From the NCBI GenBank assembly GCA_947502925.1, contig CANNBS010000002.1, positions 25,079 through 89,078 of the forward strand: a DNA stretch of 64,000 nucleotides, written 5' to 3'. The DNA is from an uncultured Marinicella sp. Its GTDB lineage: Bacteria; Pseudomonadota; Gammaproteobacteria; Xanthomonadales; Marinicellaceae. Made by a program: the position numbers and the translations under genes. Under the pieces are notes generated by a model that did no database searches, was not told the origin of the DNA, and worked only from the letters and a program-made list of their open reading frames with translations. This document shows positions 3,254-21,845 of the stretch, piece by piece. Numbering within the stretch: position 1 is the first letter of the stretch; every line of letters starts with the position of its first letter.

Positions 3254-4882
3254 ATGATATCAGCCAATATTCCACAAACACCTGCGGTCAGTAATGAGCC
3301 GATTAATGAATACCGTCCGGGGAGCGATGAAACCATTGCCTTACAAAAAGCCATGGATGAAATGGCCAACAGCCACACTGATATTCCCAACATTATTAAT
3401 GGTCAGGCGGTTAAAACCGATGACAAAACCGATGTTACCATGCCCCATGATCATCAGCATGTCTTAGGTACATATTACAAAGCCGATAAAGCCATTTTAA
3501 ACCAGGCAGCCGATGCCGCGGTGAAGGCCCAGGCTGACTGGGAACGCTTACCCTGGCAATCCAGAGCAGCGGTGTTTTTAAAAGCCGCCGATTTACTGGC
3601 CGGTCCCTACCGCAACATCATTAACGCCGCCACCATGCATGGTCAGTCGAAGAATGCCTTTCAGGCTGAGATTGATTCGGCCTGTGAGTTAATTGATTTT
3701 TTACGTTTTAATGCTGAATTTTATGAAGGTATTATGGCAGAGCAACCCGAATCCTCACCGGGTGTCTGGAACCAGCTCGACTGGCGGCCTTTAGAAGGCT
3801 TTATCCTCGCCATCACACCCTTTAACTTCACCGCCATTGCCGGAAACTTACCGGCGGCCCCGGCGATGCTGGGCAACACGGTGGTTTGGAAACCCTCAGG
3901 CACCCAAATGTTGTCAGCGCATGTCATTATGAACGTCTTTAAAGAAGCCGGATTACCCGATGGTGTGATTAATATGGTGGCTGCGGATGGTCCTGTGGCC
4001 GGCGAGGCTTTACTGACCCGCCCGGATTTAGCCGGTGTGCATTTCACCGGTTCAACGGGTACCTTCCGTCATATCTATAAAGAAATTGGTAACAACATCG
4101 ATAATTACCGCTCGTATCCGCGGATTGTCGGTGAAACCGGTGGTAAAGACTTTGTCTTTGCCCATCCCTCGGCCAATCCGGTGGCTGTCGCTACTGCCTT
4201 ATCCCGCGGTGCCTTTGAATTCCAGGGCCAAAAATGTTCAGCTGCTTCACGGGCTTATTTACCTGAATCTTTGTGGTCAGATATTAAAAACCAACTGGTG
4301 AAAGACGTTGAGTCGTTTAACATGGGCAGTACCCGTGATTTTGGTAATTTTATTAATGCGGTGATTGATGAGCCGGCATTCGATAAAATTAAATCTTATA
4401 TCGACCACGCCAAACAGGCCGATGATGCTGAAATACTCGTTGGTGGCGGTTGTGATAAAATCACCGGTTACTTTATCGAACCGACAGTCATTGTCACCAG
4501 TGACCCCGGTTTTAAAACCATGGAAGAAGAAATCTTCGGCCCTGTATTAACCGTTTATGTCTATCAGGATGATGATTTTGAAGAAACCCTAACATTATGT
4601 GATGAAGGCTCTATGTATGCCCTGACAGGCGGCATATTCGCCCAGGATCGTTATGTGATTAACCACATGGCCGATCGACTACGTCACGCTGCGGGTAACT
4701 TCTACATCAATGACAAACCCACCGGCGCCGTTGTCGGCCAGCAGCCCTTTGGTGGTGGTCGTGCCTCAGGCACCAATGATAAAGCCGGTAGTGCTTTAAA
4801 CCTTTACCGTTGGTTATCACCCAGAACCATTAAAGAAACCTTTGTACCCCCCACGGATTACCGCTATCCGTTTTTGGGTTAA
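3254..4882 (+). CDS. pruA: Monofunctional L-glutamate gamma-semialdehyde (P5C) dehydrogenase
   Basis: ALDH motifs ITPFNF, FTGSTG, GETGGKD, FQGQKCSA, EEIFGP, NDKPTGAVVGQQPFGGGRASGTNDKAG. Confidence 0.93.
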   Translation: MISANIPQTPAVSNEPINEYRPGSDETIALQKAMDEMANSHTDIPNIINGQAVKTDDKTDVTMPHDHQHVLGTYYKADKAILNQAADAAVKAQADWERLPWQSRAAVFLKAADLLAGPYRNIINAATMHGQSKNAFQAEIDSACELIDFLRFNAEFYEGIMAEQPESSPGVWNQLDWRPLEGFILAITPFNFTAIAGNLPAAPAMLGNTVVWKPSGTQMLSAHVIMNVFKEAGLPDGVINMVAADGPVAGEALLTRPDLAGVHFTGSTGTFRHIYKEIGNNIDNYRSYPRIVGETGGKDFVFAHPSANPVAVATALSRGAFEFQGQKCSAASRAYLPESLWSDIKNQLVKDVESFNMGSTRDFGNFINAVIDEPAFDKIKSYIDHAKQADDAEILVGGGCDKITGYFIEPTVIVTSDPGFKTMEEEIFGPVLTVYVYQDDDFEETLTLCDEGSMYALTGGIFAQDRYVINHMADRLRHAAGNFYINDKPTGAVVGQQPFGGGRASGTNDKAGSALNLYRWLSPRTIKETFVPPTDYRYPFLG

Positions 4883-4903
4883 CTTAAACAGAATAGGGGA
4901 CTT

Positions 4904-4931
4904 AAAAGGCGGCCCAATGGTCGCCTTTTTT
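4904..4931 (+). terminator. Intrinsic terminator after pruA
   Basis: AAAAGGCG...CGCCTTTTTT hairpin. Confidence 0.8.
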
Positions 4932-5072
4932 ATCATTAGTTGGGTGGTCTTCACTCAATTTAAAGTTTAAAATCCGAGATCTGCTGTTTTTGGACAGCGT
5001 CCTTTTTATAAATTAATTTATTCCGTGAATTAGCGTTATCCGATTTGAATTTAATTAAGCACATAAAATGAT

Positions 5073-6020
5073 ATGAAAAAACTATTAATTATTGCCCTGA
5101 TTATATCTTTGTTTTCAGCCTCCATATTTGCCCAGACGTCACCTTTGAAACAAGTCCCAGGTACCGGTATTTTTATGCAATCACCACAAGGCTTTACCGC
5201 GTCGAAACGCTTTGCCGGTTTTGAACAGGTGGACACCATGTCTTCTTTGATGGTTTTGCCGTTAAAGGATGTTTCATTGGATGAGGTCGGAAAACAGATG
5301 TTTGCTGAGTCACAATTAAAAAAGCAAAACATGACGATGCTGGGTCGTGAAGATTTGTTATTTAATGGTCGGATGGTTGGTCTGGTTTTCTTACAACAGC
5401 AAACAGCGGCCGGCGTGGTGGAAAAAATCGTTCGTTTAATCGAGGGTGATCATGAATTGGTGATTATAAACGGCATTTACTTAAAGTCACATAAAGACCA
5501 GGTTTATAAACCATTACGGAGTGCAATTCTCAGTGCTGAATGGCGTGATGTACCGGCCCCCACCGGTTTTGAAATGGTGGACTTTACGTTTGATGTTGCG
5601 CCGGGCTGGGAAATTCGTGAACCCGGTCAGTTAGGTCGGATGGTGAAGCTATCACCTGTTGATGCACCTAAGCACAGCACACCCATGGACTGGCCGCTGG
5701 TGATTGTGGCGCCTTCATTGGATGATCGAACCGTTGATAATTTGCGCGCGAGCAGTATTGAGATGTTAAAAAATGTTAAAGGCTATAAGTTTAAGTCGAT
5801 TCAATCGGAACAATCGCGTCAAATCAATGGCTTAAAATCTTATTTTATTAAAAGTAATGGTACGGATATTGAAACGTCAGAACCTTTAAGTTGTTGGCAA
5901 TTACTTATTCAGGGTGAAAATAATAAAGGTTATTACAGAATGCTGGCCATTGGTAATGACTTAGAAACCGATGCGAAGCAAGTTGTCGCAGATATTATGG
6001 AGACTTTTACGTTAAAATAA
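5073..6020 (+). CDS. Secreted hypothetical protein
   Basis: 315-aa ORF with a classical signal peptide (MKKLLIIALIISLFSASIFA); no recognised catalytic motif. Confidence 0.75.
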   Translation: MKKLLIIALIISLFSASIFAQTSPLKQVPGTGIFMQSPQGFTASKRFAGFEQVDTMSSLMVLPLKDVSLDEVGKQMFAESQLKKQNMTMLGREDLLFNGRMVGLVFLQQQTAAGVVEKIVRLIEGDHELVIINGIYLKSHKDQVYKPLRSAILSAEWRDVPAPTGFEMVDFTFDVAPGWEIREPGQLGRMVKLSPVDAPKHSTPMDWPLVIVAPSLDDRTVDNLRASSIEMLKNVKGYKFKSIQSEQSRQINGLKSYFIKSNGTDIETSEPLSCWQLLIQGENNKGYYRMLAIGNDLETDAKQVVADIMETFTLK

Positions 6021-6304
6021 TAGAAAGGACATCTTAATAGAACTCCAGTTAGTGTGTAAAATAAGTGTCAATTTACTAAACCACAGTAAATTGCATAATA
6101 TGTGGTGCTGAGATTAGCCCAATCCAACAAACGTGCTTTAATTAATAACTTTACAATTGCACTTTAACCTCGAATATATCGGATAATAGTGCATTAAAGC
6201 GATATAAACACGATATTAGCGAATAAAGTTGCATTATTTGAAAGATAATCATCAGTTTTTAATGAAAATGGCAAAAAAATAGCTGAGTTTTATACGTATT
6301 GCCC

Positions 6305-6345
6305 CATCAATATGGCTAAAATGCACGTTTAATAAATTGTTAACT
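6305..6345 (+). other. Putative integron attI-like site (core G/TTAACT at 6339-6345)
   Basis: GTTAACT is the exact complement of the inverse core AGTTAAC of the attC at 7103, as expected at the 5' boundary of an integrated cassette. The upstream sequence is not attC-like, so attI is inferred. Confidence 0.5.
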
Positions 6346-6355
6346 GTCTCTATCT

Positions 6356-7108
6356 ATGAAAGTCGTAACTTGGAACTGTAATGGGGCACTCAGACGAAAG
6401 CTTGCAGAAGCAGATAGCTTGCGAGCTGATGTCTTGGTGGTTCAGGAATGTGAAGATCCTGCGCTGTCGACCCCCGAATATAGAGAGTGGGCCGGTTCTT
6501 ACCTGTGGGTGGGCGAGTCAAAAAGTCGCGGCATCGGCATTTTTCCGAGAAACGGTCATCGAGTCGAAAAGTTAAATTGGAGTGGCAGCTTTTCCGTCCC
6601 TGGGCTTTTCAGCAAAAGTGAAACACTGAACTGGAGCACGGAAGATCTCAGGCTTTTTCTCCCTTTCACTATCAATAGAGATTTCATCGTGCTGGCCGTC
6701 TGGACGAAGGGGCGCAATGAAGAAGCATTTGGCTACATTGGGCAATTCTGGAAGTACCTTCAGATTCACCGTGACGATCTTAGCGGGCCAAAGACAGTCA
6801 TTCTCGGAGATTTTAATAGCAATGTGCGCTGGGATAAGCCGGACCGCTGGTGGAATCACTCGGACGTAATTGCCGAGCTTAGTGAGATGGGGTTCAAGAG
6901 CCAGTATCATCGAGTCTTCGAGGAAGAACAGGGCAATGAGACCAGCCCGACATTTTTCTTGCAGCGGAACCGCGAGAAGGCCTATCACATTGACTACGTT
7001 TTCACCTCGTCAGACGTTGCCGAAGAATGTAATTTGCAGGTCGGTCAGCACGACGAGTGGATTTCAATAAGCGACCACGTACCGCTGACGTTGAGCATCA
7101 ACAGTTAA
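6356..7108 (+). CDS. Endonuclease/exonuclease/phosphatase (EEP) family protein, integron cassette 1
   Basis: [36 protein letters not shown] motifs; visibly higher GC than flanks; stop codon lies inside the attC inverse core. Confidence 0.9.
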
Positions 7109-7180
7109 CAATCGGCTGCACAGCGACCGATTTTCCGCCGCTTCGCGGCTCCAAACCGGCGCGTGAGCCGGGCGTTAAAT
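7103..7180 (+). other. Integron attC site (78 bp)
   Basis: R'' AGTTAAC, L'' GCT(G)CAC pairing with L' GTGAGC leaving an extrahelical G, central GCCGC-TTC-GCGGC hairpin, R' GTTAAAT. Confidence 0.92.
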
Positions 7181-7508
7181 GCTTATGAGAACTTTCCAAT
7201 TACATAACGATGACGGAAAATCCATTGGGTTTGAGATCTCAAATTCTTTCCTTTCATCAGGTGGCATTGCTAAGTTCATTCACCGAATCAAGGGGTGTGA
7301 AATAGTTGGCAAGCAGAGATGGTTTTCAGCAAATGAAGTTCATGTTCGCTTTTCTTTTTCAGGCAAGCGTTTTATCGTTTGGGAACCTTTTGGTGATAAT
7401 AGTCGCCTATGGGTTGGCCCACAAGATGGTGAAACAGTTACACCAGAGACCATTGACGAACTGAAATCGAAATTTGAGGCTACAAGCAGATTAGGGATAT
7501 TGCGTTGA
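7179..7508 (+). CDS. Small hypothetical protein, integron cassette 2
   Basis: 109-aa ORF starting within a few nt of the attC crossover (start 7179 or 7185), typical of a promoterless cassette gene. Confidence 0.75.
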   Translation: MLMRTFQLHNDDGKSIGFEISNSFLSSGGIAKFIHRIKGCEIVGKQRWFSANEVHVRFSFSGKRFIVWEPFGDNSRLWVGPQDGETVTPETIDELKSKFEATSRLGILR

Positions 7509-7518
7509 AGTTGGCCGC

Positions 7519-7587
7519 ATTTAATAATGCAAACCAGTCTGACGGCGTTATCGGAGACGCTTGCGTGGCTCATTTTGCGAGTTATCA
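7519..7587 (+). other. Degenerate attC site
   Basis: ATTTAAT is one C>T change from ATTTAAC, the expected complement of this cassette's core GTTAAAT. Partial GCAAA/TTTGC pairing; ends in GTTAT. Confidence 0.55.
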
Positions 7588-7608
7588 AATTGTAGAGGTA
7601 AAAAATCA

Positions 7609-8085
7609 GTGAGTTTAATATTCAGAATGATCTATGTGCTATTGGCATCTTTTTTTAAACCAAGGTTACCGGTTAAACACCCAACCAGTGACCTCTCTTT
7701 TCGTGTTCTTCCCAATGATATTGATATCAACCTGCATATGAATAACGGTCGATACTTAACCATTTGTGACCTTTCGAGAGTAGATGTTTTTATTCGATCA
7801 GGATTGGCCAAATGTATGATTAAAGAAAAGTGGATGCCTGTAATTACAGAGCATACCATGAGCTATAAAAAGCCTCTTGGGGTTTTTCATAAGTATCATG
7901 TCAAAATGGAAATTGTAAGTTGGGATGAAAAGTCATTTCATATGAACCACACTTTCATTTCTGCTAAATCTGGTAGGGTTCTTGCAGAAGGAACTTCCAA
8001 AGGTAGTATTGTTAGCAAGCAAGGTGTGCTACAACCTGAACTTGTTATGAAACATGTTGAGCAACAGGGTGCAAAACTCACATAA
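7609..8085 (+). CDS. Acyl-CoA thioesterase (4HBT-like hot-dog fold), probable third cassette
   Basis: FRVLPNDIDINLHMNNGRYL motif; GTG start at 7609 after AGAGGT. Confidence 0.85.
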   Translation: MSLIFRMIYVLLASFFKPRLPVKHPTSDLSFRVLPNDIDINLHMNNGRYLTICDLSRVDVFIRSGLAKCMIKEKWMPVITEHTMSYKKPLGVFHKYHVKMEIVSWDEKSFHMNHTFISAKSGRVLAEGTSKGSIVSKQGVLQPELVMKHVEQQGAKLT

Positions 8086-8369
8086 TAATCACATCAAAAC
8101 CATTATTAAATATCACATTTTCAACATCAGCCAACTCAACAGCGCCGATATCACACAACGCACTGCCATCAGCATCCCCGTCTTGCGGGCGTGACTCACC
8201 CCGTTGATCAGTATCAGCACACAATAAGTCATCACCTTGATCAATAACTGGGCTACCTGGTAAGGGTCTGTACGTCAATGTGGGGCCGCCATAATATGCC
8301 AAGGGTTCCAGCATGGGATCGGCCACAGTAATGTGTCCCACGGGATTGTTTACACCACAACTGCCATCG
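8078..8369 (-). pseudogene. 3' remnant of a choice-of-anchor-Q-type secreted protein, truncated by IS3
   Basis: DGSCG..PLAYYGGPTLT..PLPGSPVIDQG..DQRG..RPQDGDADG..CDIGAVE and C-terminal VIFNNGFD; the 5' end abuts the IS terminus at 8370. Confidence 0.8.
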
Positions 8370-8415
8370 TGACTAGCCCAATAAATCGCTACCATTTGTA
8401 AAGAGAGAGATTTCA

Positions 8416-9252
8416 TCATGAAAGCATGCTTTCATGATGTTGCCTGGTGAATTCTGCCGGTGTCAGCATATTCAATCCACCATGTGGTCTTTCATTATTA
8501 TATTCATCTCGCCAAATATCAGCAATCATTTGTGCTTCTGATGGAGATGTGAATATATATCGATCTAAACAACCATACCTAAATATGGCATTAAAACCTT
8601 CACCATAAGCATTTTCCCAGGGTGAACCGGGTTTGATGTAGTGGGTTTTTATGTTGTTTTGTTTTAGCCATTTTTGTACGGCTTTTGCGACAAACTCAGG
8701 GCCGTTGTCTGAGCGTATAAATTCAGGTTTACCGTATATTTGAATGAGCGTTTCCAGTATCTCAATAACACTACCTGATGTGATTGAACGGGCACAGATC
8801 GTTGCTTGGCTTGACCTTGTAAATTCATCAACAACAGTTAACCATTTTAATGTTCTACCTTCTTCAGTTTGATCATTCATAAAGTCATATGTCCAAACGT
8901 GGTTAGGATATATGGCTTTGTTGACCATGCCTTGTGAGATGCCCACACGACGCTTTATAACCTTATTCATCGGTAGCTGTAGACCGTGCTCCCGCCTTAA
9001 AATACGTACTTTCTCACGACCTACTGGAAAATTATTTTCCTGAAGCTTAACGTGAATCTTACGGTAGCCAAAGGTCTCATGCTTATGTGATAAAAAGTGT
9101 AATTTATCAATCATTTCTCTATCATCTTTTTTGTATACTCGGCGTTTTGTTGATCGTGCCAAATCCATAATCTTGCAGGCTTTACGTTCACTGACGTTGA
9201 ATTTATTTTCTAAATGCTCAGCAGCCATCCTCTTTTGGCGAGAGCCTACCAC
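8416..9252 (-). CDS. IS3 transposase OrfB (rve integrase core)
   Basis: WTYDF, VVDEFTR, IRSDNGPEF, WENAYGEGFN DDE motifs; A6G -1 frameshift motif at 9252-9258. Confidence 0.92.
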   Translation of the reverse strand: MVGSRQKRMAAEHLENKFNVSERKACKIMDLARSTKRRVYKKDDREMIDKLHFLSHKHETFGYRKIHVKLQENNFPVGREKVRILRREHGLQLPMNKVIKRRVGISQGMVNKAIYPNHVWTYDFMNDQTEEGRTLKWLTVVDEFTRSSQATICARSITSGSVIEILETLIQIYGKPEFIRSDNGPEFVAKAVQKWLKQNNIKTHYIKPGSPWENAYGEGFNAIFRYGCLDRYIFTSPSEAQMIADIWRDEYNNERPHGGLNMLTPAEFTRQHHESMLS

Positions 9253-9512
9253 TTTTTTGAGTTAACCTCCTTGAGCATCTCAATATCTAAGGCTTGATTG
9301 GCAATGATGGTTTTAAGACGGCGGTTTTCTTCGGCAAGTTGTTTCATTTTGCGGACATCTGAAACAGCCATACCTGAATACTTTTGCTTCCATTTATAAA
9401 AGGTGGACTGGGCTATGTTCTCACGCCGAATAATATTTGCTGCATTACCTTGGGTTTCAGCTTCTTTCAAAATTCGAACGATTTATTCTTCTGTATATCT
9501 TTTTCGTTTCAT
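9246..9512 (-). pseudogene. IS3 OrfA with premature stop
   Basis: ATG at 9512 after GGAG reads MKRKRYTEE*IVRILKEAE; TAA at 9485-9483 where CAA (Gln) is expected. Confidence 0.85.
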
Positions 9513-9580
9513 TGGTTTGCTCCAAAGTTAAAGTTATTATACTCTCTTTAGCTTTGGCAGTGTTTATGGGGGGCTAGTCA

Positions 9581-9825
9581 TGGTGATGACTTTTTTTATG
9601 GGTTATTTGACCTGTTTTTTCTTTGTTCGCTTGCGCCATCCCATGGCACAATTGATTATGCCGGCGACACTTAATTTGATGTTGTCTGTTACCTGTTTGA
9701 CTATTTTGCATTGGCTGATTGGTACGCCAGAGATTATCTTGACCATAATGCCTGCATTGATTGTGGGCTTTTTGTTTTGTCTATTTAAAACCATACAACT
9801 AAAGAGGAAATTAAATGATGAGTGA
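9581..9825 (+). pseudogene. Probable 3' remnant of a membrane protein gene truncated by IS3
   Basis: Hydrophobic open frame begins exactly at the IS end (the ORF-track ATG is created by the junction) and overlaps the next gene like an operon member. Confidence 0.5.
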
Positions 9826-10465
9826 TACAAACAGGCGGGTGTTGAAAGTACGGGATAAAAAATGGGTGAATCAAGTGGCGTCTTATATCAGCCAAAAGCG
9901 TATAACACCCAACCAAATATCCATTGCCAGTGTGTTTTTCGCTGTATTGGCCGGTTTTGCTTTAGCCCGTTTTGGCTTGGTGCACCATGTTTGGCTGTTG
10001 TTGGTGTCTGCTGTGATGATTCAGTTGCGGTTATTATGTAATTTGTTTGATGGTCTGGTGGCGATTGAAGGCGGTAAAAGTACAGCTTCCGGTGAATTAT
10101 TTAATGATGTGCCGGATCGAATTGCAGATGTGATTATTTTGGTTTCTTTGGGGTATGCGGCCGGTGATTATAATTACGCTGTGACACTTGGTTGGCTGGC
10201 TGCTGTGTTATCGGTGATGACTGCTTATATCAGAACTTTAGGTACCAGTCTCAATGCACCCACCAGTTTTGCCGGACCTATGGCTAAGCAACATCGTATG
10301 GCCTTAGTTACGTTGGCCTGTTTATTGGCGATTATTGAGTTTCATGTGTTTGACAGTGGGTACAGCTTATATGTGGCTTTGTGCTTGTTGGTGGCGGGCA
10401 CCTTGATAACTGTTTTCCGACGGGCAGGTTTAATCTATCAATTTTTAGAGAATGCACATGATTGA
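9815..10465 (+). CDS. CDP-alcohol phosphatidyltransferase family protein (YnbA-like)
   Basis: LCNLFDGLVA..GELFNDVPDRIAD = DG(x)2A(x)8G(x)3D(x)3D-type signature. Confidence 0.9.
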   Translation: MMSDTNRRVLKVRDKKWVNQVASYISQKRITPNQISIASVFFAVLAGFALARFGLVHHVWLLLVSAVMIQLRLLCNLFDGLVAIEGGKSTASGELFNDVPDRIADVIILVSLGYAAGDYNYAVTLGWLAAVLSVMTAYIRTLGTSLNAPTSFAGPMAKQHRMALVTLACLLAIIEFHVFDSGYSLYVALCLLVAGTLITVFRRAGLIYQFLENAHD

Positions 10466-11405
10466 TTTGTCAGAATTTGACTTTTTTCATCCGGTTTACC
10501 TAACGATGGCTTTGGTATTGGGTGTTTTGGTGTTTGCACATATCACCAGTTATTGTTTGGTTAAACTGAATAAAATTAAATCACCAGAAGAATTACTTTT
10601 ACGGATTAAATCTTGGTGGTGGATAATTGGTTTACTGTTTTTTTCTATCTTATCGGGTTTAACGGCCAGTATCATATTGATTGCTTTCATAAGCTTCTTG
10701 GCGTTAAAGGAATATTTATCCATTGTCCCAACTCGCCAATCAGACAGGCGTGTTATATTTTGGGCTTATTTAACCATACCGATTCAGTATTATCTTGTAA
10801 GTATTAATTGGTATGGTTTATTTAATATATTTATACCGGTCTATGTGTTTTTAGTGTTATCTGTGCGGATGGTGTTAACCGGGAAGAACAGTGGTTTCAT
10901 TCATTCGGTGGGTGTATTGCATTGGGGTGTGATGTTAACCGTTTATAGTGTCAGTCATGTGGCATATTTACTGGTGTTACCCATTGGTGAATTAACAGAC
11001 ACGGGGTTTGGGCTGATGTTGTTTTTGATTATGATGACGCAGCTGAATGATGTTTGCCAATATTTATTTGGGAAGTTGCTAGGCCGTCGTAAAATTATCC
11101 CTGCGGTTAGCCCGAATAAAACTTGGGCAGGTTTTATTGGTGGCGTGATATCTATCACCATTTTGTCAGGGGGTATCGGCCCATTTTTAACGCCGATGGA
11201 CATTCAGTTTAGTGTTTTGGCCGGTTTTGTCATTGCTGTGACCGGTTTCTTCGGTGACGTAACCATCTCTTCGGTTAAACGTGACTTACAAATTAAAGAC
11301 AGCGGGCAATTATTACCGGGGCATGGTGGTATCTTGGATCGTATTGACAGTCTGATGTTTACCGCACCTTTGTTCTTCCACTTTGTACGTTATTTTTATG
11401 CATAA
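10452..11405 (+). CDS. Phosphatidate cytidylyltransferase family protein (YnbB-like)
   Basis: SPNKTWAG, SSVKRDLQIKDSGQLLPGHGGILDRIDS signature. Confidence 0.92.
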   Translation: MHMIDLSEFDFFHPVYLTMALVLGVLVFAHITSYCLVKLNKIKSPEELLLRIKSWWWIIGLLFFSILSGLTASIILIAFISFLALKEYLSIVPTRQSDRRVIFWAYLTIPIQYYLVSINWYGLFNIFIPVYVFLVLSVRMVLTGKNSGFIHSVGVLHWGVMLTVYSVSHVAYLLVLPIGELTDTGFGLMLFLIMMTQLNDVCQYLFGKLLGRRKIIPAVSPNKTWAGFIGGVISITILSGGIGPFLTPMDIQFSVLAGFVIAVTGFFGDVTISSVKRDLQIKDSGQLLPGHGGILDRIDSLMFTAPLFFHFVRYFYA

Positions 11406-12045
11406 ATTAAATCGTTTAATACAATTATTGTTTTTTGCTGTGTTGGTCAAGCCGCTGGTTTTAATCATTTTAGGTTTAAATATAAGAAATAAAAAAGGCT
11501 TACCGATGGAAGGACCTGCGGTAATAATGGCTAATCATAACAGTCATTTAGATACTATGGTTTTAATGAGCTTATTTCCGTTAAGAAAGATGCATAAAGT
11601 CAGGCCTGTGGCAGCGGCGGACTATTTTTTAAAGAACCGCTGGATGGCGTGGTTTTCTTTAAAAATAATCGGCATTATTCCACTTGAGCGAACCGGAAAA
11701 GCCGATAGAGACACCTTATTTAATGAATGTCATGATGCTTTGGATAAGGGTGAAATTCTGGTGCTTTTCCCTGAAGGCAGTCGTGGTTTACCAGATCAGA
11801 TGAGTACATTAAAAAAGGGTGTGTATCATTTAATTAAAGACAGAGATGATGTTTCTGCTGTGCCAATAGTTATGAACGGGTTGGGTTTTGCTTTACCCAA
11901 AGGTGAGGGCTTATTGGTGCCGGTTAATGTTGATGTGATTGTTGGTCAGGCCATCGATCACTCGCCAAATGCGGATGTTTTTATTGATAGCACAACAAAA
12001 GCGTTTACTCAGTTGAAAGAGTTTTGTATTACAAAGCAGAGTTAG
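11398..12045 (+). CDS. 1-acyl-sn-glycerol-3-phosphate acyltransferase family protein
   Basis: ANHNSHLD (HX4D) and LFPEGSR motifs; ATG 11398 overlaps the preceding stop. Confidence 0.9.
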   Translation: MHKLNRLIQLLFFAVLVKPLVLIILGLNIRNKKGLPMEGPAVIMANHNSHLDTMVLMSLFPLRKMHKVRPVAAADYFLKNRWMAWFSLKIIGIIPLERTGKADRDTLFNECHDALDKGEILVLFPEGSRGLPDQMSTLKKGVYHLIKDRDDVSAVPIVMNGLGFALPKGEGLLVPVNVDVIVGQAIDHSPNADVFIDSTTKAFTQLKEFCITKQS

Positions 12046-12142
12046 ACAAGTCAGATTTGTATAGAGGTGATTCTTATTTTGACAGAACATGCTTTATAAA
12101 GTAGGCCGTTAATTGATGAAAATAAAAAAAATAAAAAAAGTT

Positions 12143-12172
12143 TTGATTATTTTTTTAAAACCGTGGTACATT
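12143..12172 (+). promoter_or_regulatory. Putative sigma70 promoter of arg leader/operon
   Basis: TTGATT (12143-48), 18-nt spacer, extended -10 TG-G-TACATT (12164-72), preceded by an A/T-rich UP-like tract. Confidence 0.6.
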
Positions 12173-12197
12173 ATGCTCAAATCATATTAATTAAACG

Positions 12198-12308
12198 ATG
12201 ACACATAACAACGACAATTTTTCTTTTATTCAAAAAGCATTGATTGGAAACAGTGCAGTGGTTGTTCGTCGTCGCCGTCCGGAAAAGACAATGGAGCTCT
12301 TTGGCTAG
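12198..12308 (+). CDS. Putative arg operon leader peptide, 36 aa: MTHNNDNFSFIQKALIGNSAVVVRRRRPEKTMELFG
   Basis: Hand translation; CGT CGT CGC CGT at 12267-12278; the stop codon abuts the antiterminator arm; too short for the ORF track. Confidence 0.8.
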   Translation: MTHNNDNFSFIQKALIGNSAVVVRRRRPEKTMELFG

Positions 12309-12351
12309 ACGCGTGATTTAAAGAAATATTTTAAAAACCCGGCCAAAGAGC
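12296..12351 (+). promoter_or_regulatory. Putative antiterminator hairpin of arg attenuator
   Basis: GCTCTTTGGC (12296-12305) is perfectly complementary to GCCAAAGAGC (12342-12351), which spans both arms and the loop of the terminator. Confidence 0.8.
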
Positions 12352-12362
12352 CGGGTTTTTTT
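12333..12362 (+). terminator. Attenuator intrinsic terminator upstream of argF'
   Basis: AAAAACCCGGC-CAAAGA-GCCGGGTTTTTTT; lies between promoter/leader and the argF' start, on the same strand. Confidence 0.88.
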
Positions 12363-12397
12363 ATACCCGGTTAATTTGGCTTTATTCAGGACTGAAC

Positions 12398-13414
12398 ATG
12401 ATAAAGCATTTTTTAACCACTGAAGATTGGTCACAAACACAGCTAGACGTGCTTTTGGCTGATGCGAATCTCCTTAAGCAAAATCCAATTCAAAGTCATT
12501 TGAGTCATAAGTCGATGGCTTTGCTATTCTTTAATCCATCGATGCGAACCCGGACATCATTTGAACTCGGCATCCAACAATTGGGCGGTACAGCCATTAT
12601 TTTAGAACCGGGTCAAGGTGCATGGGGTATTGAATTTGAACCCCATAGCATTATGGATGGAGATGCGGAAGAACATATTAAAGAAGTGGCCGGCGTCTTA
12701 TCTTCCTATGTTGATATGATTGCTATTCGTGCTTTCCCTGCCTTTAAGGATTGGCAGATTGATCGTTTAGATCACAAAATCAAAGCCTTGGCAGCACATG
12801 CAACCGTACCGGTTATTAATATGGAAACCATTGTTCATCCCTGTCAGGAATTAGCGTTGATGATGACCATCAAACAACATTTTAAAGTGGTTAAGCGCAA
12901 GAAATTTCTTCTAACCTGGACATATCATCCGAAACCACTGAACACCGCCGTCGCTAATTCCGCCTTACTGATAAGTAGTAAGTTTGGTATGGACGTGACC
13001 TTATTGTGTCCCAATGAGAATTATTTATTGGATGAAAAATACCTGACAGCCGCCAAAGCACAATGTGATGAACATGGTGCTGATTTTACTGTGTCCCATG
13101 ACATTGAATCAGCTTATGCAGAGGCTGATTTTGTGTATGCGAAAAGTTGGGGCGCTTTACCTTTTTATGGTAATCCGAGCAATGAATTTGAACAACGTAA
13201 ATACTTTAAACACTTTAGGGTTGATGGTCAGAAAATGGCACTAACCAATCAAGCCAAATTCAGTCATTGTTTGCCGCTTCGACGAAATATTAAAGCCACT
13301 GATGAAGTGATGGATGCGCCTTATTGTGTGGCGTTAGAAGAAGCAGAGAATCGATTACACGTACAAAAAGCCATGATGTTGAATCTCATGGGTCATCAAT
13401 TAAAACAATCATAA
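12398..13414 (+). CDS. argF': N-acetylornithine carbamoyltransferase (AOTCase)
   Basis: FFNPSMRTRTSF, HPCQ, LTWTYHPKPLNTAVANS, HCLPLRRN: AOTCase-type motifs rather than canonical OTCase (STRT/SMG). Confidence 0.9.
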   Translation: MIKHFLTTEDWSQTQLDVLLADANLLKQNPIQSHLSHKSMALLFFNPSMRTRTSFELGIQQLGGTAIILEPGQGAWGIEFEPHSIMDGDAEEHIKEVAGVLSSYVDMIAIRAFPAFKDWQIDRLDHKIKALAAHATVPVINMETIVHPCQELALMMTIKQHFKVVKRKKFLLTWTYHPKPLNTAVANSALLISSKFGMDVTLLCPNENYLLDEKYLTAAKAQCDEHGADFTVSHDIESAYAEADFVYAKSWGALPFYGNPSNEFEQRKYFKHFRVDGQKMALTNQAKFSHCLPLRRNIKATDEVMDAPYCVALEEAENRLHVQKAMMLNLMGHQLKQS

Positions 13415-13427
13415 GAGAGAAGATTTC

Positions 13428-14630
13428 ATGAATAAAAAAACAATTGTATTGGCATTTTCCGGTGGTTTAGACACCAGTTACTGTTTGTATCATCTCACGC
13501 AGCAAGGTCATGATGTTCATACTGTATTTGTTAATGCCGGCGGTGTTGATGCGGACGAAGTTAAGCGAATTGAAGAACAAGCTGAACGACTGGGTGCTCA
13601 TCAACATCATTGTTTGGATGCTCAGCAGAATATATGGGATGAGTTTGTTAAACCATTGATTTGGTCGAAAGCCAAGATGCGAGATGAATATCCTTTACTA
13701 TGTTCAGATCGCTACGTGATTGTGAAATTATGTCTACAGCTGTGCGATCAATTGGGAACGTCTTATTTTTCACATGGGTGTACAGCCATGGGTAATGACC
13801 AATTCCGCTTTGATCAAACAGTTCATTCACTTGGCAAGTATGACATTATTGCGCCAATTCGAGATTTACAGGCTCAAGTTAAGGGCCATATTCGAGATCA
13901 TGAGTTACAGGTGCTTAAAGCAGCCGGTTTCGAAATGTCCGGTCAGCATAAAAAGTACTCCATTAATGAAAATATGTTGGGTGTGACCATATCAGGCAGC
14001 GAAATTGATGCGTTTCAAGCACCCGGTGAAGACAGTTTGCATTGGGTTAAACCGAAAGTTGCCTGGCCGGATAAAATCTTAGATTTAGAAATTGGTTTTA
14101 ACCAGGGAGTGGCCACTCATTTAAATGGAGAAGCCATGGCAGGTCCGACACTTTTAAAACAGTTAAACCAGCAACTGGCTCAATATGGAATAGGCCGTCA
14201 CATTTACACCGGCGATGTCAGTATTGGATTAAAAGGTCGCATTGTTTTTGAATGTCCCGGTATTGATGCTTTGATGCAAGCTCATAAAGCCTTAGAAGAC
14301 TTGGTTAATTCAAAACTGCAAAATGAATTCAGGGGAGATGTTTCAAAACGTTGGGCAGATCTGGTCTATCAAGGCTTTTTCTACGAACCCCACAAACAAG
14401 ATTTAGAAGCTTATTTAAGTAGTTCGCAATCACATGTAACCGGAAAGGTTTCCTTGAGTACTGAGGGTGGTTGCTTGTTGGCGACATCAGTGGATTCTGA
14501 CTTTATTATCCAAGACCCACAATCGGTCTATGCACAATCCGCAGCCTGGTCACCACAAGAAGCCTTGGGCTTTATAAAACTAACAGGGCAAAGTGCCACG
14601 CTGGTCAATCAGGTTAGGAGACAGTCATGA
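13428..14630 (+). CDS. argG: Argininosuccinate synthase
   Basis: VLAFSGGLDTS, HGCTAMGNDQFRF, YSINENMLG motifs. Confidence 0.95.
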   Translation: MNKKTIVLAFSGGLDTSYCLYHLTQQGHDVHTVFVNAGGVDADEVKRIEEQAERLGAHQHHCLDAQQNIWDEFVKPLIWSKAKMRDEYPLLCSDRYVIVKLCLQLCDQLGTSYFSHGCTAMGNDQFRFDQTVHSLGKYDIIAPIRDLQAQVKGHIRDHELQVLKAAGFEMSGQHKKYSINENMLGVTISGSEIDAFQAPGEDSLHWVKPKVAWPDKILDLEIGFNQGVATHLNGEAMAGPTLLKQLNQQLAQYGIGRHIYTGDVSIGLKGRIVFECPGIDALMQAHKALEDLVNSKLQNEFRGDVSKRWADLVYQGFFYEPHKQDLEAYLSSSQSHVTGKVSLSTEGGCLLATSVDSDFIIQDPQSVYAQSAAWSPQEALGFIKLTGQSATLVNQVRRQS

Positions 14631-15757
14631 ATCAAACTAAGGTTTTACAAGCAAGCAATAACAGCAATAAAAATGCCTTTTTAGCGATTAAAAAACACCT
14701 GTCTTTCCTTATAAGCTGTGATACTTGTAACCCACCACGAACAATTCGATTCACAGATCCTTTGTTTGTTGGTCTTGAAGCTTATTTTAAAAGTCAGGGA
14801 TTTACCGTAACAATGGCTGATTTCGGTGAAGGGCACGTGGTATTTTATGCCGTAAGAGGTAGGCCCAAGGTATTATTTAATGTTCATTTAGATACCGTTC
14901 CTGTGTCTGATGGTTGGCACTATGATCCTTTTAATTTGACTGAATCTAAAGGTCGTTTTTATGGTCGTGGTAGTTGCGATATCAAAGGTGCGGCAGCCTG
15001 TTTAATGGCGCTGGCTGAAACACAAGAGAATAGTAAAGAGTATGATATGTCTGTGCTATTCACAACAGATGAGGAAGGTCTTGATAGTTGTTGTATTAAA
15101 CATTTTATTGATGCCCATGATTTATCCGGATATCAACAGGTCATTGTGGCAGAACCCACTGAATGCCTGGCGATTACTGAGCATCGAGGTTATGTATCGG
15201 CTCACGGTAAATTTAAGGGAACCAGTGGCCATTCCTCTTCTGTAGATGCGTTGACAGGAAATGCAGTGCATCAGGCAAATCTATGGCTAACTGATGCGTT
15301 GACAATAGCACAGCAATCTCAAACAAGTACAAATCCAGCGGGTATATGTTTTAATTTGGGTTACATTAAAGGCGGTGAAAAAAATAACATGATTGCTGAA
15401 TAGTGTCAGCTTGGTTTTAGTGTTCGAGTGCCTGCCGGATCATCATCAACGACAACCTATAATTCATTAATTAATGTTAATCAAAGTGGAGCGACATGGC
15501 GTTGCTCACTAATGGCTCCGGCTTTACCTGAACATGCCTTTGGCAACCAAAAATCCATTGATTTTTGTCAGCAACATGGACTCGAACAAGGTAATCCTGT
15601 TGATTTTTGGACCGAAGCCTCATTATTTAATCAGGCGGGACTTCCTGCATTGGTATTAGGGCCAGGTAACATTGCCCAGGCACATACAGTGGATGAATGG
15701 GTGGCTATCGACCAGCTGCTTAAATGTTATGCAATATATCAAGGGGTTATTCAATGA
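14627..15757 (+). pseudogene. argE: Acetylornithine/acetylcitrulline deacetylase (M20) interrupted by in-frame TAG at 15401-15403
   Basis: NVHLDTVP, GRGSCDIKG, TDEEG, VAEPT in the first part. The frame continues past TAG (CQLGFSVRVP..FWTEAS..GPGNIAQAHTVDE). Confidence 0.85.
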
Positions 15758-17145
15758 AAAGCAGCAAATATAATACACAAACTAAACAACAGATTATACG
15801 CAGTGCTCTGAATCAATTAACCCATAGTCAGGAAGCCAAACATTATTTAAAACGCTATCAAAATCATGATGAAATGAACTTTGCAGTGGTTAAGGTGGGT
15901 GGTGGTACTTTGGCGGATGAATTAGAGATTCTGGCTGAATCTTTGGCTTTATTATCTCACTTGGGGTTAAATCCCATTGTTATACATGGTGCCGGGGTGC
16001 AATTGGACAAAGGATTAGCGCATGCTGGTATAAAAACTTCCAAAAAAAACGGCATGCGTGTCACAGATGAAGCTTGTATGAAAGTCATTAGGCCTGTTAT
16101 GTATGATGTTAATCATCAATTGGTTCGCGCCTTGGAACAACAGGGTGTTCGGGCTTACGGTGTGGTGCATGGTGTCTTTGAATGTCGATATTTAGATCAA
16201 CAAACGTATGGCTTAGTGGGTGATGTTGAAAAAATTCATTTGTCACCCATAAAACAAGCGATTCAAACAGGCTCTATTCCGGTGTTAAGTTGTCTGGGAG
16301 AAACGGCCAGTGGCCAAGTGCTGAATATTAATGCCGATGTCGCCACTCGGGAGCTTGTGTGGAAAATTCATCCGCATAAAATTATTTTTGTGACGCCAAC
16401 CGGTGGCATACTCGATAATAAAAGTGACATTATTTCAGCGATTCAGTTGAATAATGATTTTGATTATATGATTCAACAGCCTTGGTTACATTCAGGCATG
16501 AAGCTTAAATTACAACAAATTAAAGACATGCTAGCACCTTTGGATTGTGGTCACTCAGTTTCCATTACTTCTAGCAAGAATTTGGCTAGAGAACTCTTTA
16601 CATACAAAGGTGCCGGTACTTTTATCAATATGGGTGAAAAAATCAATGAAAGTTTGGAGTTGGATCAGTCAAATCTGTCTTTATTGCATGCCATTTTTGA
16701 AGATGCCTTTGGACGTACTTTTAAGACTGACTTTTTATCTAATCTGAAAATAAAAAAAATCTATTTGGCTGAGTCGGGCAGGGCAGCAGCCATTATCTCA
16801 TCGGGCTTTCGTAATCACGCATACTTACATAAATTTGCAGTTACTAAAGCGGGACAGGGTGAAGGTTTGGCAGCCAGCTTGTGGCAACAGATTATTAAAG
16901 ATTTCCCTCAGTTATATTGGCGATCCCGGACAAATAATGATATCAATGATTGGTACTTTAAACAGGCGGATGTGTCGGTTAAATCAACAGCTGGCGATTG
17001 GGTGGGGTTTTCATGTGGTTTATTCCCGGCGGAATCATTGGAGTGCATCCAACAGGCTTTTAAGGTTGATTCGGGCTGGCAGTCGATACAGGAACAAACA
17101 ACTGTGTCTATTCAACAGAATGTAAAAGAGGCGCACCATGTCTAA
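15754..17145 (+). CDS. argB: Acetylglutamate kinase domain fused to NAT/DUF619 domain (NAGS/K type)
   Basis: VVKVGGG, IHGAG, NINAD in the AAK domain; YLHKFAV, LYWRSR..N.INDWYF in the NAT domain; start ATG 15754 overlaps the argE stop. Confidence 0.88.
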   Translation: MKSSKYNTQTKQQIIRSALNQLTHSQEAKHYLKRYQNHDEMNFAVVKVGGGTLADELEILAESLALLSHLGLNPIVIHGAGVQLDKGLAHAGIKTSKKNGMRVTDEACMKVIRPVMYDVNHQLVRALEQQGVRAYGVVHGVFECRYLDQQTYGLVGDVEKIHLSPIKQAIQTGSIPVLSCLGETASGQVLNINADVATRELVWKIHPHKIIFVTPTGGILDNKSDIISAIQLNNDFDYMIQQPWLHSGMKLKLQQIKDMLAPLDCGHSVSITSSKNLARELFTYKGAGTFINMGEKINESLELDQSNLSLLHAIFEDAFGRTFKTDFLSNLKIKKIYLAESGRAAAIISSGFRNHAYLHKFAVTKAGQGEGLAASLWQQIIKDFPQLYWRSRTNNDINDWYFKQADVSVKSTAGDWVGFSCGLFPAESLECIQQAFKVDSGWQSIQEQTTVSIQQNVKEAHHV

Positions 17146-18121
17146 ACGCATAAAAGCTGCAATTATTGGTGCTCGGGGTTATGTGGGCGTTGAGCTGATA
17201 AAACTTTTGGATTTGCACCCAAAAGTTGATTTAAAAGTCGCTTTTTCAAGGTCTTATGAAGGCCAAAAGGTCAGCACTGTGGTCAGTGGCTTTTCTGATA
17301 ATCAATTAGAGTATCAATCAGATGATTTGAATGTTTTGCAAAACATGTCATTGGATGTGATTTTTTTGGCATTACCTGATGGTATAGCTAAGAGGCATGA
17401 TGACTTGTGGCGTTTCATGGCAAAAGATACTGTTATTATTGATCTTAGTGCTGATTATCGTTTTGATAATAATTGGGTGTACGGGCAGCCGGAAACCAAT
17501 AAACATAATCTAAAACGGGCTAAAAAAATCGCTAACCCGGGATGTTATGCGACCGGAATTCAAATGGGTTTAAAGCCTTTACTGCCATACTTAAAAGGCA
17601 CTACGCATGATGTGCCCACGGCATTTGGTGTTTCCGGTTATAGTGGAGCAGGGACTCAGCCGTCCAATAAAAATGACCCTGATCGATTAGCGGATAACTT
17701 ATTGGCCTATAAGGCCACAGGACACACTCATGAAAATGAAGTGAGTCATGTGTTACAACATACGATACGATTTATGCCACATGTGGCCGCTCATTTTAGA
17801 GGTATTCACATCACTTTGTCAGGTCAACTTAAGGCGCCAATGTCTGAAGAAGGAATGTTGGCGCTGTTTAATGAATTTTATGCAGATCATACACTGATAA
17901 AAATCCAGTCCAATCCGGCAGAGATTCAACAAATCAAAAACAAGCATCATATGATTATGGGTGGGTTTACAGTATCTAAACGTGAGCCCGGACATTTTGT
18001 GTTCAATGTATGTTTAGATAATTTATTAAAAGGGGCAGCCACTCAGGCTGTGCAAAACATGAATTTAGCATGTGCACACGATTTTCAGACACAATGCTTT
18101 GAAGGTATTAATTATGAGTAA
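17138..18121 (+). CDS. argC: N-acetyl-gamma-glutamyl-phosphate reductase
   Basis: IIGARGYVG, IDLSADYR, IANPGCYAT, DNLLKGAATQAVQNMN. Confidence 0.95.
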   Translation: MSKRIKAAIIGARGYVGVELIKLLDLHPKVDLKVAFSRSYEGQKVSTVVSGFSDNQLEYQSDDLNVLQNMSLDVIFLALPDGIAKRHDDLWRFMAKDTVIIDLSADYRFDNNWVYGQPETNKHNLKRAKKIANPGCYATGIQMGLKPLLPYLKGTTHDVPTAFGVSGYSGAGTQPSNKNDPDRLADNLLAYKATGHTHENEVSHVLQHTIRFMPHVAAHFRGIHITLSGQLKAPMSEEGMLALFNEFYADHTLIKIQSNPAEIQQIKNKHHMIMGGFTVSKREPGHFVFNVCLDNLLKGAATQAVQNMNLACAHDFQTQCFEGINYE

Positions 18122-19432
18122 TAAACATATTAACAATAAAAATATTCAATCTGTCTTGTGGTCAGGTGATCATCAGGATATGGATGATGCCGTAATGCGA
18201 TATTTGGCCGGTGATGATATCTGCTTGGATCAAGCTTTATTTTTATATGACATAAAAGGGACGGGGGCTCATTTAGTGGGTCTGGCTGACATTGGAATAA
18301 TATCCGATGATGAATGTAAACAGTTTTTAGCTGCACTGGAGCAATTGAAAAATGCATTTTTGACTCATGAGTTTGTATTAGACCAACGGTTCGAAGATGG
18401 CCATTCAGCCATTGAGTTTTACTTAACGCAGGAATTAGGCGAGTTGGGCAAAAAAGCCCACACCGGGCGATCAAGAAATGATCAGGTCTTAACTTGTTTG
18501 CGGTTATTTATGAAGGATCAAATGGGTTTGTTAAAACATGAGGTGGCTGAGGTTATTGAGGCTTTGTTATCTCTTGCTGAAGTTCATGAACATACCTTGA
18601 TGCCGGGTTATACTCATTTACAAAGAGCCATGCCAAGTACTGTGGCAGTATGGTTACTAGGTTTTGCTGAAAGTTTACTGGATAATTTACAGCATTTAAA
18701 TCATATGATGGATTTAATTGATTCTTCTCCCTTGGGTACGGCGGCCGGATTTGGGGTGCCTTTACCCTTAGCGCGTCAAACCACCGCCTCAGAAATGGGG
18801 TTTTCTCGGGTACAAATTAATCCGGTTGTGCCCAAAATACACGGGGAAAATACGAATTGATGACTTTGCATAGCTTGTCTTACCTTATGTCAGATGTTCG
18901 AAGATTTTCTTGGGATTTAAGTTTATTTATGAGTAGTGAGTTTGACTTTATTAAACTGGCTTCTTCACACACCACAGGTTCTTCTATTATGCCTAATAAG
19001 AATAACCCGGATATCGTTGAGATGATGCGGGCAGGTTTGTCTGTGGTTGAAGGTGCAATCCAACAAACCCAGTCTTTACTCTCATTACCCAGTGGTTATC
19101 AAAGAGATTTACAGTTAAGTAAAGAACCGATATTAAAAGGCATGGAAATGACTCGTCAAACATTTGCCTTGCTACCGGGCTTGTTAACGGCAATGCATTT
19201 TAATCAAGATAAAATGACTGCAGCCATAACACCTGAAATGATGGCCACAGATCGTGCTTTAAAGAAAGTTCTGGAAGGCCAATCGTTTCGAAACGCTTAC
19301 TTAGACTCTAAACAAACGGTTCAATCTGATATGACGGCTGAACAATCCGTTGCTGAACGGGTTTCATTAGGCGGCGCAGCCAATTTAGGTCTTGATGTTC
19401 TTAAAAAACGTTTTGGGTCATTGATTGATTAA
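18114..19432 (+). pseudogene. argH: Argininosuccinate lyase split by a 1-nt frameshift near 18825-18830
   Basis: HTGRSRNDQ and MPGYTHLQRA in part 1; TTGSSIMPNKNNPD in part 2; the shifted frame gives AQNTRGKYELM, linking both halves. Confidence 0.88.
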
Positions 19433-19557
19433 CATCCGAATATATTTACATTACCATTATGATTATCATTATTAGGGACATGGTTTTAGCCTAAATTTAA
19501 ACTTGGAAATAAAAACAATGCGTGACAAAATAACATTATTTAAATGAGCTGAACATT

Positions 19558-21799: not shown

Positions 21800-21845
21800 A
21801 CAAGGGGATACCCATCTAGACGTTCTTTTTTGCCTTTCGCTTTAA

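Follow-up and report, generated by a model that had tools for sequence, protein, structure and literature searches.

A Marinicella integron platform that heads gene cassettes without an adjacent integrase gene

How do gene cassettes come to stand behind an integron attachment site when no integrase gene lies beside it? The question is raised by positions 6,021 to 7,587 of the stretch analysed here, 64,000 nucleotides from an uncultured Marinicella sp. (GenBank assembly GCA_947502925.1, contig CANNBS010000002.1, positions 25,079 to 89,078 of the forward strand); the whole stretch is called the window below, and coordinates refer to it. An original prediction, made from the DNA letters, had read these positions as an integrase-less integron, an attI-like site followed by gene cassettes, and offered two explanations, a solo attI served in trans or a remnant after loss of intI. 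Our analysis suggests that the locus is very probably an orphan integron platform, i.e. a functional-looking attI without an adjacent integrase gene, which still heads captured cassettes.

The attI platform and its cassettes

The following features make up the proximal part of the locus; the slash marks the crossover point throughout.

5073..6020, + strand: chromosomal gene on the left flank, outside the integron; 315-aa protein with a signal-peptide-like N-terminus
6125..6154, - strand: remnant of the intI 5' end, about 20-30 nt, aligning to the first intI codons of relatives
6155..6341, + strand: attI platform with repeated ATGCA-type blocks, homologous to intI-attI spacers
6315-6341, + strand: attI core, TTAAAATGCACGTTTAATAAATTG/TT, crossover between G6339 and T6340
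6340..7174, + strand: cassette 1, 835 bp, from G/TTAACT (6339-6345) to the attC1 crossover
6356-7108, + strand: open reading frame (ORF) of cassette 1, 250-aa protein of the endonuclease/exonuclease/phosphatase (EEP) family (PF03372, E 2e-12)
7103..7180, + strand: attC1, canonical, 78 nt; R'' AGTTAAC (7103-7109), R' G/TTAAAT (7174-7180)
7175..7547, + strand: cassette 2, starting with G/TTAAAT (7174-7180)
7179-7508, + strand: ORF of cassette 2, 109-aa protein of a small unnamed family
7519..7553, + strand: eroded attC2, a 35-nt stub; R'' ATTTAAT (7519-7525; AAC changed to AAT), R' GTTATCG (7547-7553)

The attI-like site was compared with complete integrons of the genus, a comparison that had been proposed beforehand. 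The comparison covers 24 genomes, the source genome (G000; 2.8 Mb in 27 contigs, 98% complete) and 23 sister species (G001, G003, G013 etc.). Positions 6143-6341 are 70-77% identical to the spacers between intI and the first cassette in sister species, and the 22-nt core at 6320-6341, AATGCAYRTTTAATAARTTG/TT (AATGCAYRTTTAATAARTTGTT), is identical to theirs in 22 of 22 positions. The homology of the platform reaches at least 10 intI-linked sites, and all sequences are unrelated directly past the GTT (G6339/T6340). The locus has, in other words, the proximal attI with a G/TT crossover that belongs to a complete integron. The GC content of the platform is 28%, in agreement with the AT-rich 320 bp that had been described upstream of the cassettes.

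Of the integrase gene itself only a sliver can be seen. At the start of intI, read on the cassette strand, relatives have ...CTAATAGCTTCAT and the window has ...TTAATAACTTTAC, with GTA now at the position of the start codon, which implies that the 5' end of intI is preserved over about 20-30 nt. Beyond these nucleotides at 6125-6154, tblastn and the integron integrase profile TIGR02249 found no intI sequence at the locus. To this extent the idea of a remnant after intI loss holds. The gene next to the platform is, as had been noted, a same-strand gene for a secreted-type protein (5073..6020). It matched no Pfam family and is genus-specific; its orthologues in G001, G016, and G014 have 76-87% DNA identity, and the homology stops at the stop codon (6020) against G001 and G016, and at 5977 against G014.

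An integrase can also insert cassettes outside attI, at a non-classical site of the genome (an attG or secondary site), as has been proposed for single attC sites without integron integrase (SALINs). SALINs and small clusters of such sites (CALINs) are common and can arise in this way (10.1101/2022.09.11.507474), and a single intact attC is what the window has; its cassettes also lie isolated, outside a complete integron, as in such insertions. At the left junction, however, about 200 bp share homology with the attI next to intI in relatives and a piece of intI is retained, and the core is family-specific, being confined to this family (two genera) among 201 genomes of the order. The insertion point is the family's bona fide attI and not an unrelated site, which makes this explanation hardly credible.

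The attI core overlaps a -10-like hexamer, TAAAAT at 6317-6322. The pattern TAnAAT is conserved in 22 of 26 copies, with its last base 17 nt before the crossover, and it is conceivable that expression of the cassettes would start in the platform, where this hexamer lies. The original prediction had also pointed to a perfect palindrome upstream of the cassettes. It is present, with 9-bp arms at 6069-6077 and 6085-6093, but it is marginally above chance (p about 0.03 in shuffles), lies in a 100-bp stretch left of the conserved platform without counterpart in relatives, and is not conserved in them. It was therefore rejected as a part of attI.

Cassette 1 has the boundaries that had been predicted, the G/TTAACT at its start and, as its exact complement, the inverse core AGTTAAC of the attC at its end. 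This attC is real. It was scored with a covariance model built here from the canonical attCs beside sister-species intI genes and rebuilt from 21 sites of the genus; the model also detects 31 attCs in unrelated metagenomic and Marinimicrobium arrays, thus it reaches beyond the genus. The 21-site alignment was fitted to the model; in it, pairing in the L''/L' helix reaches 97%, with compensatory, both-sided changes at all 5 modelled pairs, and the three outer positions of the R boxes frequently lack a partner, as chimeric sites would lead one to expect. With this model attC1 scores 64.8 bits (E 4e-16) and is the sole significant attC of the window. As single-stranded DNA it folds with -23 to -25 kcal/mol (z = -3.6; 0-1 of 200 shuffles equally stable), its R boxes are paired, there is a 2-nt unpaired spacer, and three single bases bulge out of the R''/L'' arm of the bottom strand. 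Cassette 1 is thus bounded by an attC with a bottom-strand hairpin and extrahelical bases, as in a complete integron. The stop codon of its ORF falls within R'' of attC1, and it is the only cassette here that retains both sites required for excision, attI and attC1.

The DNA of cassette 1 seems to have arrived from elsewhere. Its GC content is 51%, as compared to 28% in the platform and about 41% in the flank (28-42% around). In a scan of species representatives the same gene was found, with 84-99% protein identity, in Halospina, Halomonas/Vreelandella, Salinispirillum, Idiomarina, Alcanivorax, Marinobacter, and a metagenome-assembled genome of Verrucomicrobia. At the DNA level the identity to copies in at least 8 genera is 88-98%, with 98.3% to Halospina denitrificans. 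In most copies this homology is bounded at 6339 and 7177, the crossover points, and the flanks are unrelated; the copies in other genera are followed by the same 78-nt attC, usually within multi-attC arrays. By these boundaries, cassette 1 is a discrete mobile cassette. Since it is 98.3% identical to the Halospina copy, and the nearest species is about 10% divergent in its core genes, the cassette would have been captured recently in relation to that divergence. Searches of the cassette proteins in PADLOC and among PDB sequences matched nothing, that of cassette 1 included. An orphan attI core in another genome of the genus (L043, G018:C11:1283000-1286500, 1126-1782) is followed by one cassette of about 560 bp, the attC of which is 97% identical to attC1. 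The cassette sequence that precedes this attC is without similarity to cassette 1, thus the same attC is attached to different cassettes within the genus.

Cassette 2 agrees with the original prediction in its G/TTAAAT start and in its R'' (ATTTAAT, one change from AAC), but not in the position of R'. The R' had been placed at 7581-7587, which was rejected, as both the covariance model and intact homologous attCs give 7547-7553, and attC2 is then a 35-nt stub. R'' and L'' are kept, and the sequence then jumps directly to GGCGTTATCG (GGC-GTTATCG); the L' arm and the central part, about 50-75 nt in intact homologous attCs, are deleted. The stub scores 5.3 bits (E 5.6) with the genus model, and 7505-7605, where a second attC had been supposed, folds no better than shuffled sequence (z about 0). 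Because attC2 cannot fold, cassette 2 would be locked to the sequence downstream.

Among 5.8 billion proteins there are 20 further homologues of the 109-aa protein, with 39-84% identity, none of them named or with a Pfam domain. Five of their loci were read, four in metagenome contigs and one in Marinimicrobium, and all are attC-bounded cassettes in arrays; each cassette begins with the window's own GCGTTAAATGCYTATGA. The attCs of the homologues are intact (84-111 nt) and open with GCATTTAAC-A…CAA-CA…. Judged by these relatives, cassette 2 is a real cassette, despite its stub of an attC.

Orphan attI sites in the genome and the genus

The source genome has no integron integrase (a tyrosine recombinase with an insert specific to IntI) that could be detected, neither adjoining the array, as in a complete integron, nor elsewhere. 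The top match to TIGR02249 reached 72 bits, where the cut-off is 265, and tblastn with IntI of sister species returned XerC/D-type recombinases only. Above the same cut-off, intI was found in 15 of the 23 other genomes (18 genes in total), with 350-400 bits in sister species. The statement that there is no intI beside the site was thus correct and can be extended to the genome. The attI site is, on the other hand, not alone. Seven attI cores are found in the source genome, one in the window, three in contig C4, one in C6, and two in C7, and all are without intI. Four of the seven carry the full 200-bp platform, likewise with no intI, and most of the cores have an attC 0.3-1.9 kb downstream.

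The same picture is seen in the genus. With at most 2 mismatches the core occurs 70 times in the 24 genomes, as compared to 0 times for a reversed-pattern control and to the 18 intI genes. Ten cores are situated 170-330 bp from the start of an intI in divergent orientation, and 2 more at 3 mismatches; one genome has 11 cores and one intI. We suggest that the site in the window would be a member of a family-specific set of dispersed attI platforms, most of which do not adjoin intI.

A second orphan array of the source genome (L035, G000:C4:334000-343000, 4560-7300) shows how such a site can look. It opens with a full attI platform, whose core is at 4782-4803, and then has a cassette that encodes a 186-aa protein and an attC at 5385-5462, followed by a toxin-antitoxin-like gene pair at 5553-6033 and two short attI-like cores at 6406-6427 and 7207-7228. 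About 80 nt of mutually similar sequence precede each of the short cores and an ORF follows each, i.e. there are tandem mini-attIs within one array. In G013, contig C59 has a 95% copy of the attI of contig C45 together with 52 nt of intI, and may be a young orphan site.

Could the 200-bp module be something other than a recombination site, a mobile promoter element or a repeat like a miniature inverted-repeat transposable element (MITE) that lies beside intI by chance? It is multi-copy, and at 6120-6139 the window repeats the core imperfectly, in inverted orientation, over 20 nt. The inverted copy was considered as a transposon-like end and rejected, since a match of this kind (8-nt seed) is expected by chance and the other copies of the module lack it. 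Furthermore, 25 further copies of the module were read, and like the window's they start unrelated sequence directly from the G/TT, most of them with an attC downstream. Orthologous loci also diverge exactly at the G/TT, as described below, and a promoter element or MITE is scarcely to be believed.

Two of the orphan sites of the source genome have an orthologue in the sister species G001. G000:C4 and G001:C15 are 90.5% identical over 3471 bp, a stretch that takes in the platform and a truncated intI stub common to both. It ends at the G/TT, and past this point the two carry different cassettes. G000:C7 and G001:C1 are 90.9% identical up to the G/TT and continue with dissimilar arrays of 1.73 and 0.74 kb, beyond which the two are homologous again, precisely from the GCGTTATGTC R' of the last attC. 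G001 does have an intI, at another place than its C15 and C1 orphan sites. Since the orphan sites are orthologous in the two species, the loss of the adjacent intI predates the species split. The cassette content of both sites thus appears to have been replaced after the loss, at the crossover points of the integrase, which is the signature of service in trans. As the cassettes were exchanged exactly at the G/TT, orphan sites would have been used in trans, and at least some of the dispersed platforms may be served by an integrase encoded elsewhere.

For the window we propose the following mechanism. An integron integrase would have recombined the folded bottom-strand attC of circular cassettes with the double-stranded attI at G6339/T6340. 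As insertion takes place at this point of attI, the newest cassette stands first, and the order of capture would be the older 109-aa cassette, now second, and then the EEP cassette. Later, attC2 would have lost its central part and L' arm, which fused cassette 2 to downstream sequence, and the distal end of the array would have been cut by a rearrangement linked to an insertion sequence (IS) of the IS3 family. The genome is now without integron integrase, so the cassettes would be frozen unless an integrase is imported.

It is also conceivable that the locus is a dead remnant, in which all cassettes were captured while the adjacent intI was present and the site has been unused ever since its loss. 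There is no orthologous locus by which the loss of intI here can be dated, the eroded attC2 and the truncated array are signs of decay, and the genome currently has no intI. Every conserved block of the platform and a perfect core have nevertheless been kept, while the adjoining intI decayed to 20-30 nt. The recent capture suggested by the similarity of cassette 1 to the Halospina copy, and the two sister orphan sites that changed their cassettes after intI loss, also speak against a site that is no longer used, and we find a dead remnant unlikely. An invariant cassette content across relatives would have spoken against the original prediction, but the content is not invariant. A whole copy of any of the window's three genes is lacking in the 23 other species searched (a cut-off piece of cassette 1 stands at a contig end in G003), and cassette 1 circulates among other genera.

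Some observations weigh against an orphan platform with cassettes captured in trans. The window's own site has no orthologue, and 6021-21845 is missing from the two closest species. An integron near a P5C dehydrogenase gene in G007 or G005 was tried as the same locus and rejected, as the intervening genes differ and the orthology was not established. Because no orthologous site was found, we infer trans service at the window locus from the sister loci, and the proposal of a solo attI served in trans, which fits the sister sites, extends to the window's own attI by analogy. The attC calls rest on our own model and not on that of IntegronFinder. A scan with the sigma-70 consensus gave no + strand promoter match inside the platform and no convincing -35. 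Finally, contigs C16, C17, and C20 (1155, 974, and 481 bases) read entirely N and could not be searched.

The last point leaves room for a complete integron with its intI unassembled or in the masked contigs, as these amount to 2610 bases and an intI is about 960 bp. The window, however, runs without a gap from the gene on the left flank across attI to the cassettes, with no room for intI at the locus, and the platforms in C4, C6, and C7 likewise leave no room. The masked contigs probably hold rRNA, since there is no 16S rRNA in the unmasked part of the genome. We regard a hidden intI as very improbable, and the orphan platform remains our explanation of the locus.

The distal end of the array

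Downstream of the attC2 stub the array is continued by the following features.

7548..8085, + strand: third unit, a degenerate GC-rich hairpin element (about 7547-7580) and a thioesterase gene
7609-8085, + strand: thioesterase gene, 158 aa, 4HBT_2 acyl-CoA thioesterase (PF13279, E 7e-25)
8078..8369, - strand: gene fragment, C-terminal part with a choice-of-anchor Q domain (NF041518, E 7e-22)
8370..9580, - strand: IS3-family element, 1211 bp; orfA (HTH), orfB (DDE rve), terminal inverted repeats TGACTAGCCC

No attC was detected in the thioesterase unit with the genus model. The thioesterase has only weak matches in the 23 other species (23-26% identity), and the two homologues whose context was read have ordinary chromosomal settings. 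Without an attC, and with both of these homologues chromosomal, it is unsupported as a proven cassette. In the genus, a palindromic, GC-rich element (GTTACAGGAGACGCTTGCGCGCCTCCTGTAAC) is repeatedly found at the start of cassettes or close to it, for instance just past the attI core in L049 and, as reverse complement, at 3341-3490 in L026. In G001:C1 it stands directly after the G/TT of attI, and the window's degenerate copy directly after the attC2 stub.

The choice-of-anchor Q fragment is convergent with the thioesterase gene, which it overlaps by 8 bp, and its ORF runs into the IS, which marks the cut of the array. The IS element belongs to the IS3 family by PF01527, PF13276, PF00665, and PF13683, and by its TG...CA inverted repeats. 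There is no 3-bp target-site duplication (the flanks are TCG and TGG), and the element would thus sit at a rearrangement junction. It has a truncated gene fragment on one side and an unrelated operon on the other, which suggests an IS-mediated rearrangement. It is the single full copy in the genome, and related ends are found at many contig ends in sister genomes. A search against Rfam gave nothing relevant, the only match being a sub-threshold S15 within the IS.

The operon beyond the IS is low in GC and on the + strand. With the platform, the cassettes, and the IS it forms the 15.8 kb in place of which the two closest species have 0.88 kb. The genes of the operon are those for a CdsA-like cytidylyltransferase and an acyltransferase, and a cluster for arginine biosynthesis with ornithine carbamoyltransferase (OTCase), argininosuccinate synthase, an M20 peptidase, an N-acetylglutamate synthase/kinase-type protein, a semialdehyde dehydrogenase, and a Lyase_1 protein. 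The genes for the M20 peptidase (argE-like, 14627-15757) and the Lyase_1 protein (argH-like, 18072-19432) each appear as two consecutive ORFs, which may be frameshifts or decaying genes.

Relation to other integrase-less arrays

CALINs and SALINs are clusters of attC sites, or single ones, without integron integrase (Cury et al. 2016, PMC4889954; Loot et al. 10.1101/2022.09.11.507474). About 95% of CALINs have no adjoining intI pseudogene and about 5% are remnants with intI pseudogenes, and the attI search of IntegronFinder is limited to classes 1-3 (Cury et al. 2016, PMC4889954). The window has much in common with them, i.e. attC-bounded cassettes, no integron integrase nearby, and no substantial intI pseudogene adjoining, but an attI that can be recognised as such, next to a sliver of intI, stands at the head of its array. 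A CALIN has at least 2 detectable attCs and the window one that is significant, the second having E 5.6 with our own model. By the definitions of IntegronFinder the locus would be a SALIN, at best a two-site CALIN, and formally the former because there is a single intact attC. A SALIN in the sense of Loot et al. is a single attC with no other att site nearby (10.1101/2022.09.11.507474), and here an attI lies 764 bp upstream of attC1. It appears that the locus is of a known kind (CALIN/SALIN), in an attI-headed, multi-copy variant.

Sedentary chromosomal integrons, e.g. the superintegron of Vibrio cholerae, are similar in their chromosomal, lineage-specific attI and in co-oriented cassettes mostly of unknown function, and the integrases of the sister species are of the same family (TIGR02249, 350-400 bits). 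They differ in having one platform, while here there is no intI in cis or genome-wide, the arrays have 1-3 cassettes, and the attI copies are many and dispersed. A likeness is also found to integron remnants with intI pseudogenes, such as the arrays next to ilvD in Xanthomonas, where the integrase has decayed and the cassettes are retained. In the window, unlike these, intI is almost wholly deleted and attI is intact, and the same is seen again at many loci of the genome and the family. A literature search for orphan or solo attI gave nothing usable. What appears to be new is the seven attI cores without intI in one genome, the about 70 cores against 18 intI genes in the genus, and the orthologous orphan sites with exchanged cassettes.

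The origin of cassettes and attC clusters without integrase is debated; they may be decayed integrons, fragments moved by transposons, or insertions at non-classical sites. Here the origin can be read from the sequence, with cassettes at a genuine attI that has lost its integrase, and an attI type present in many orphan copies per genome. The swaps of whole contents at exact crossover points in two orthologous orphan sites indicate that an attI can work far from the integrase gene. If orphan sites are generally served in this way, many CALINs and SALINs of genome surveys would be attI-headed satellite sites, and neither array fragments nor attG insertions. Surveys could seek lineage-specific attI upstream of them, and the 200-bp platform is directly testable for recombination in trans. 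Cassette 1 also shows clearly how a single cassette circulates among several genera of marine Gammaproteobacteria, with 88-98% DNA identity.

For the family itself, we lean, with some reserve, towards the view that the integron is a distributed system, where one integrase (or none) serves many short and scattered attI platforms with 1-3 cassettes each. The orphan attI sites would then be kept by selection as docking-and-expression modules, which go on exchanging cassettes at the G/TT after their own intI has been lost.

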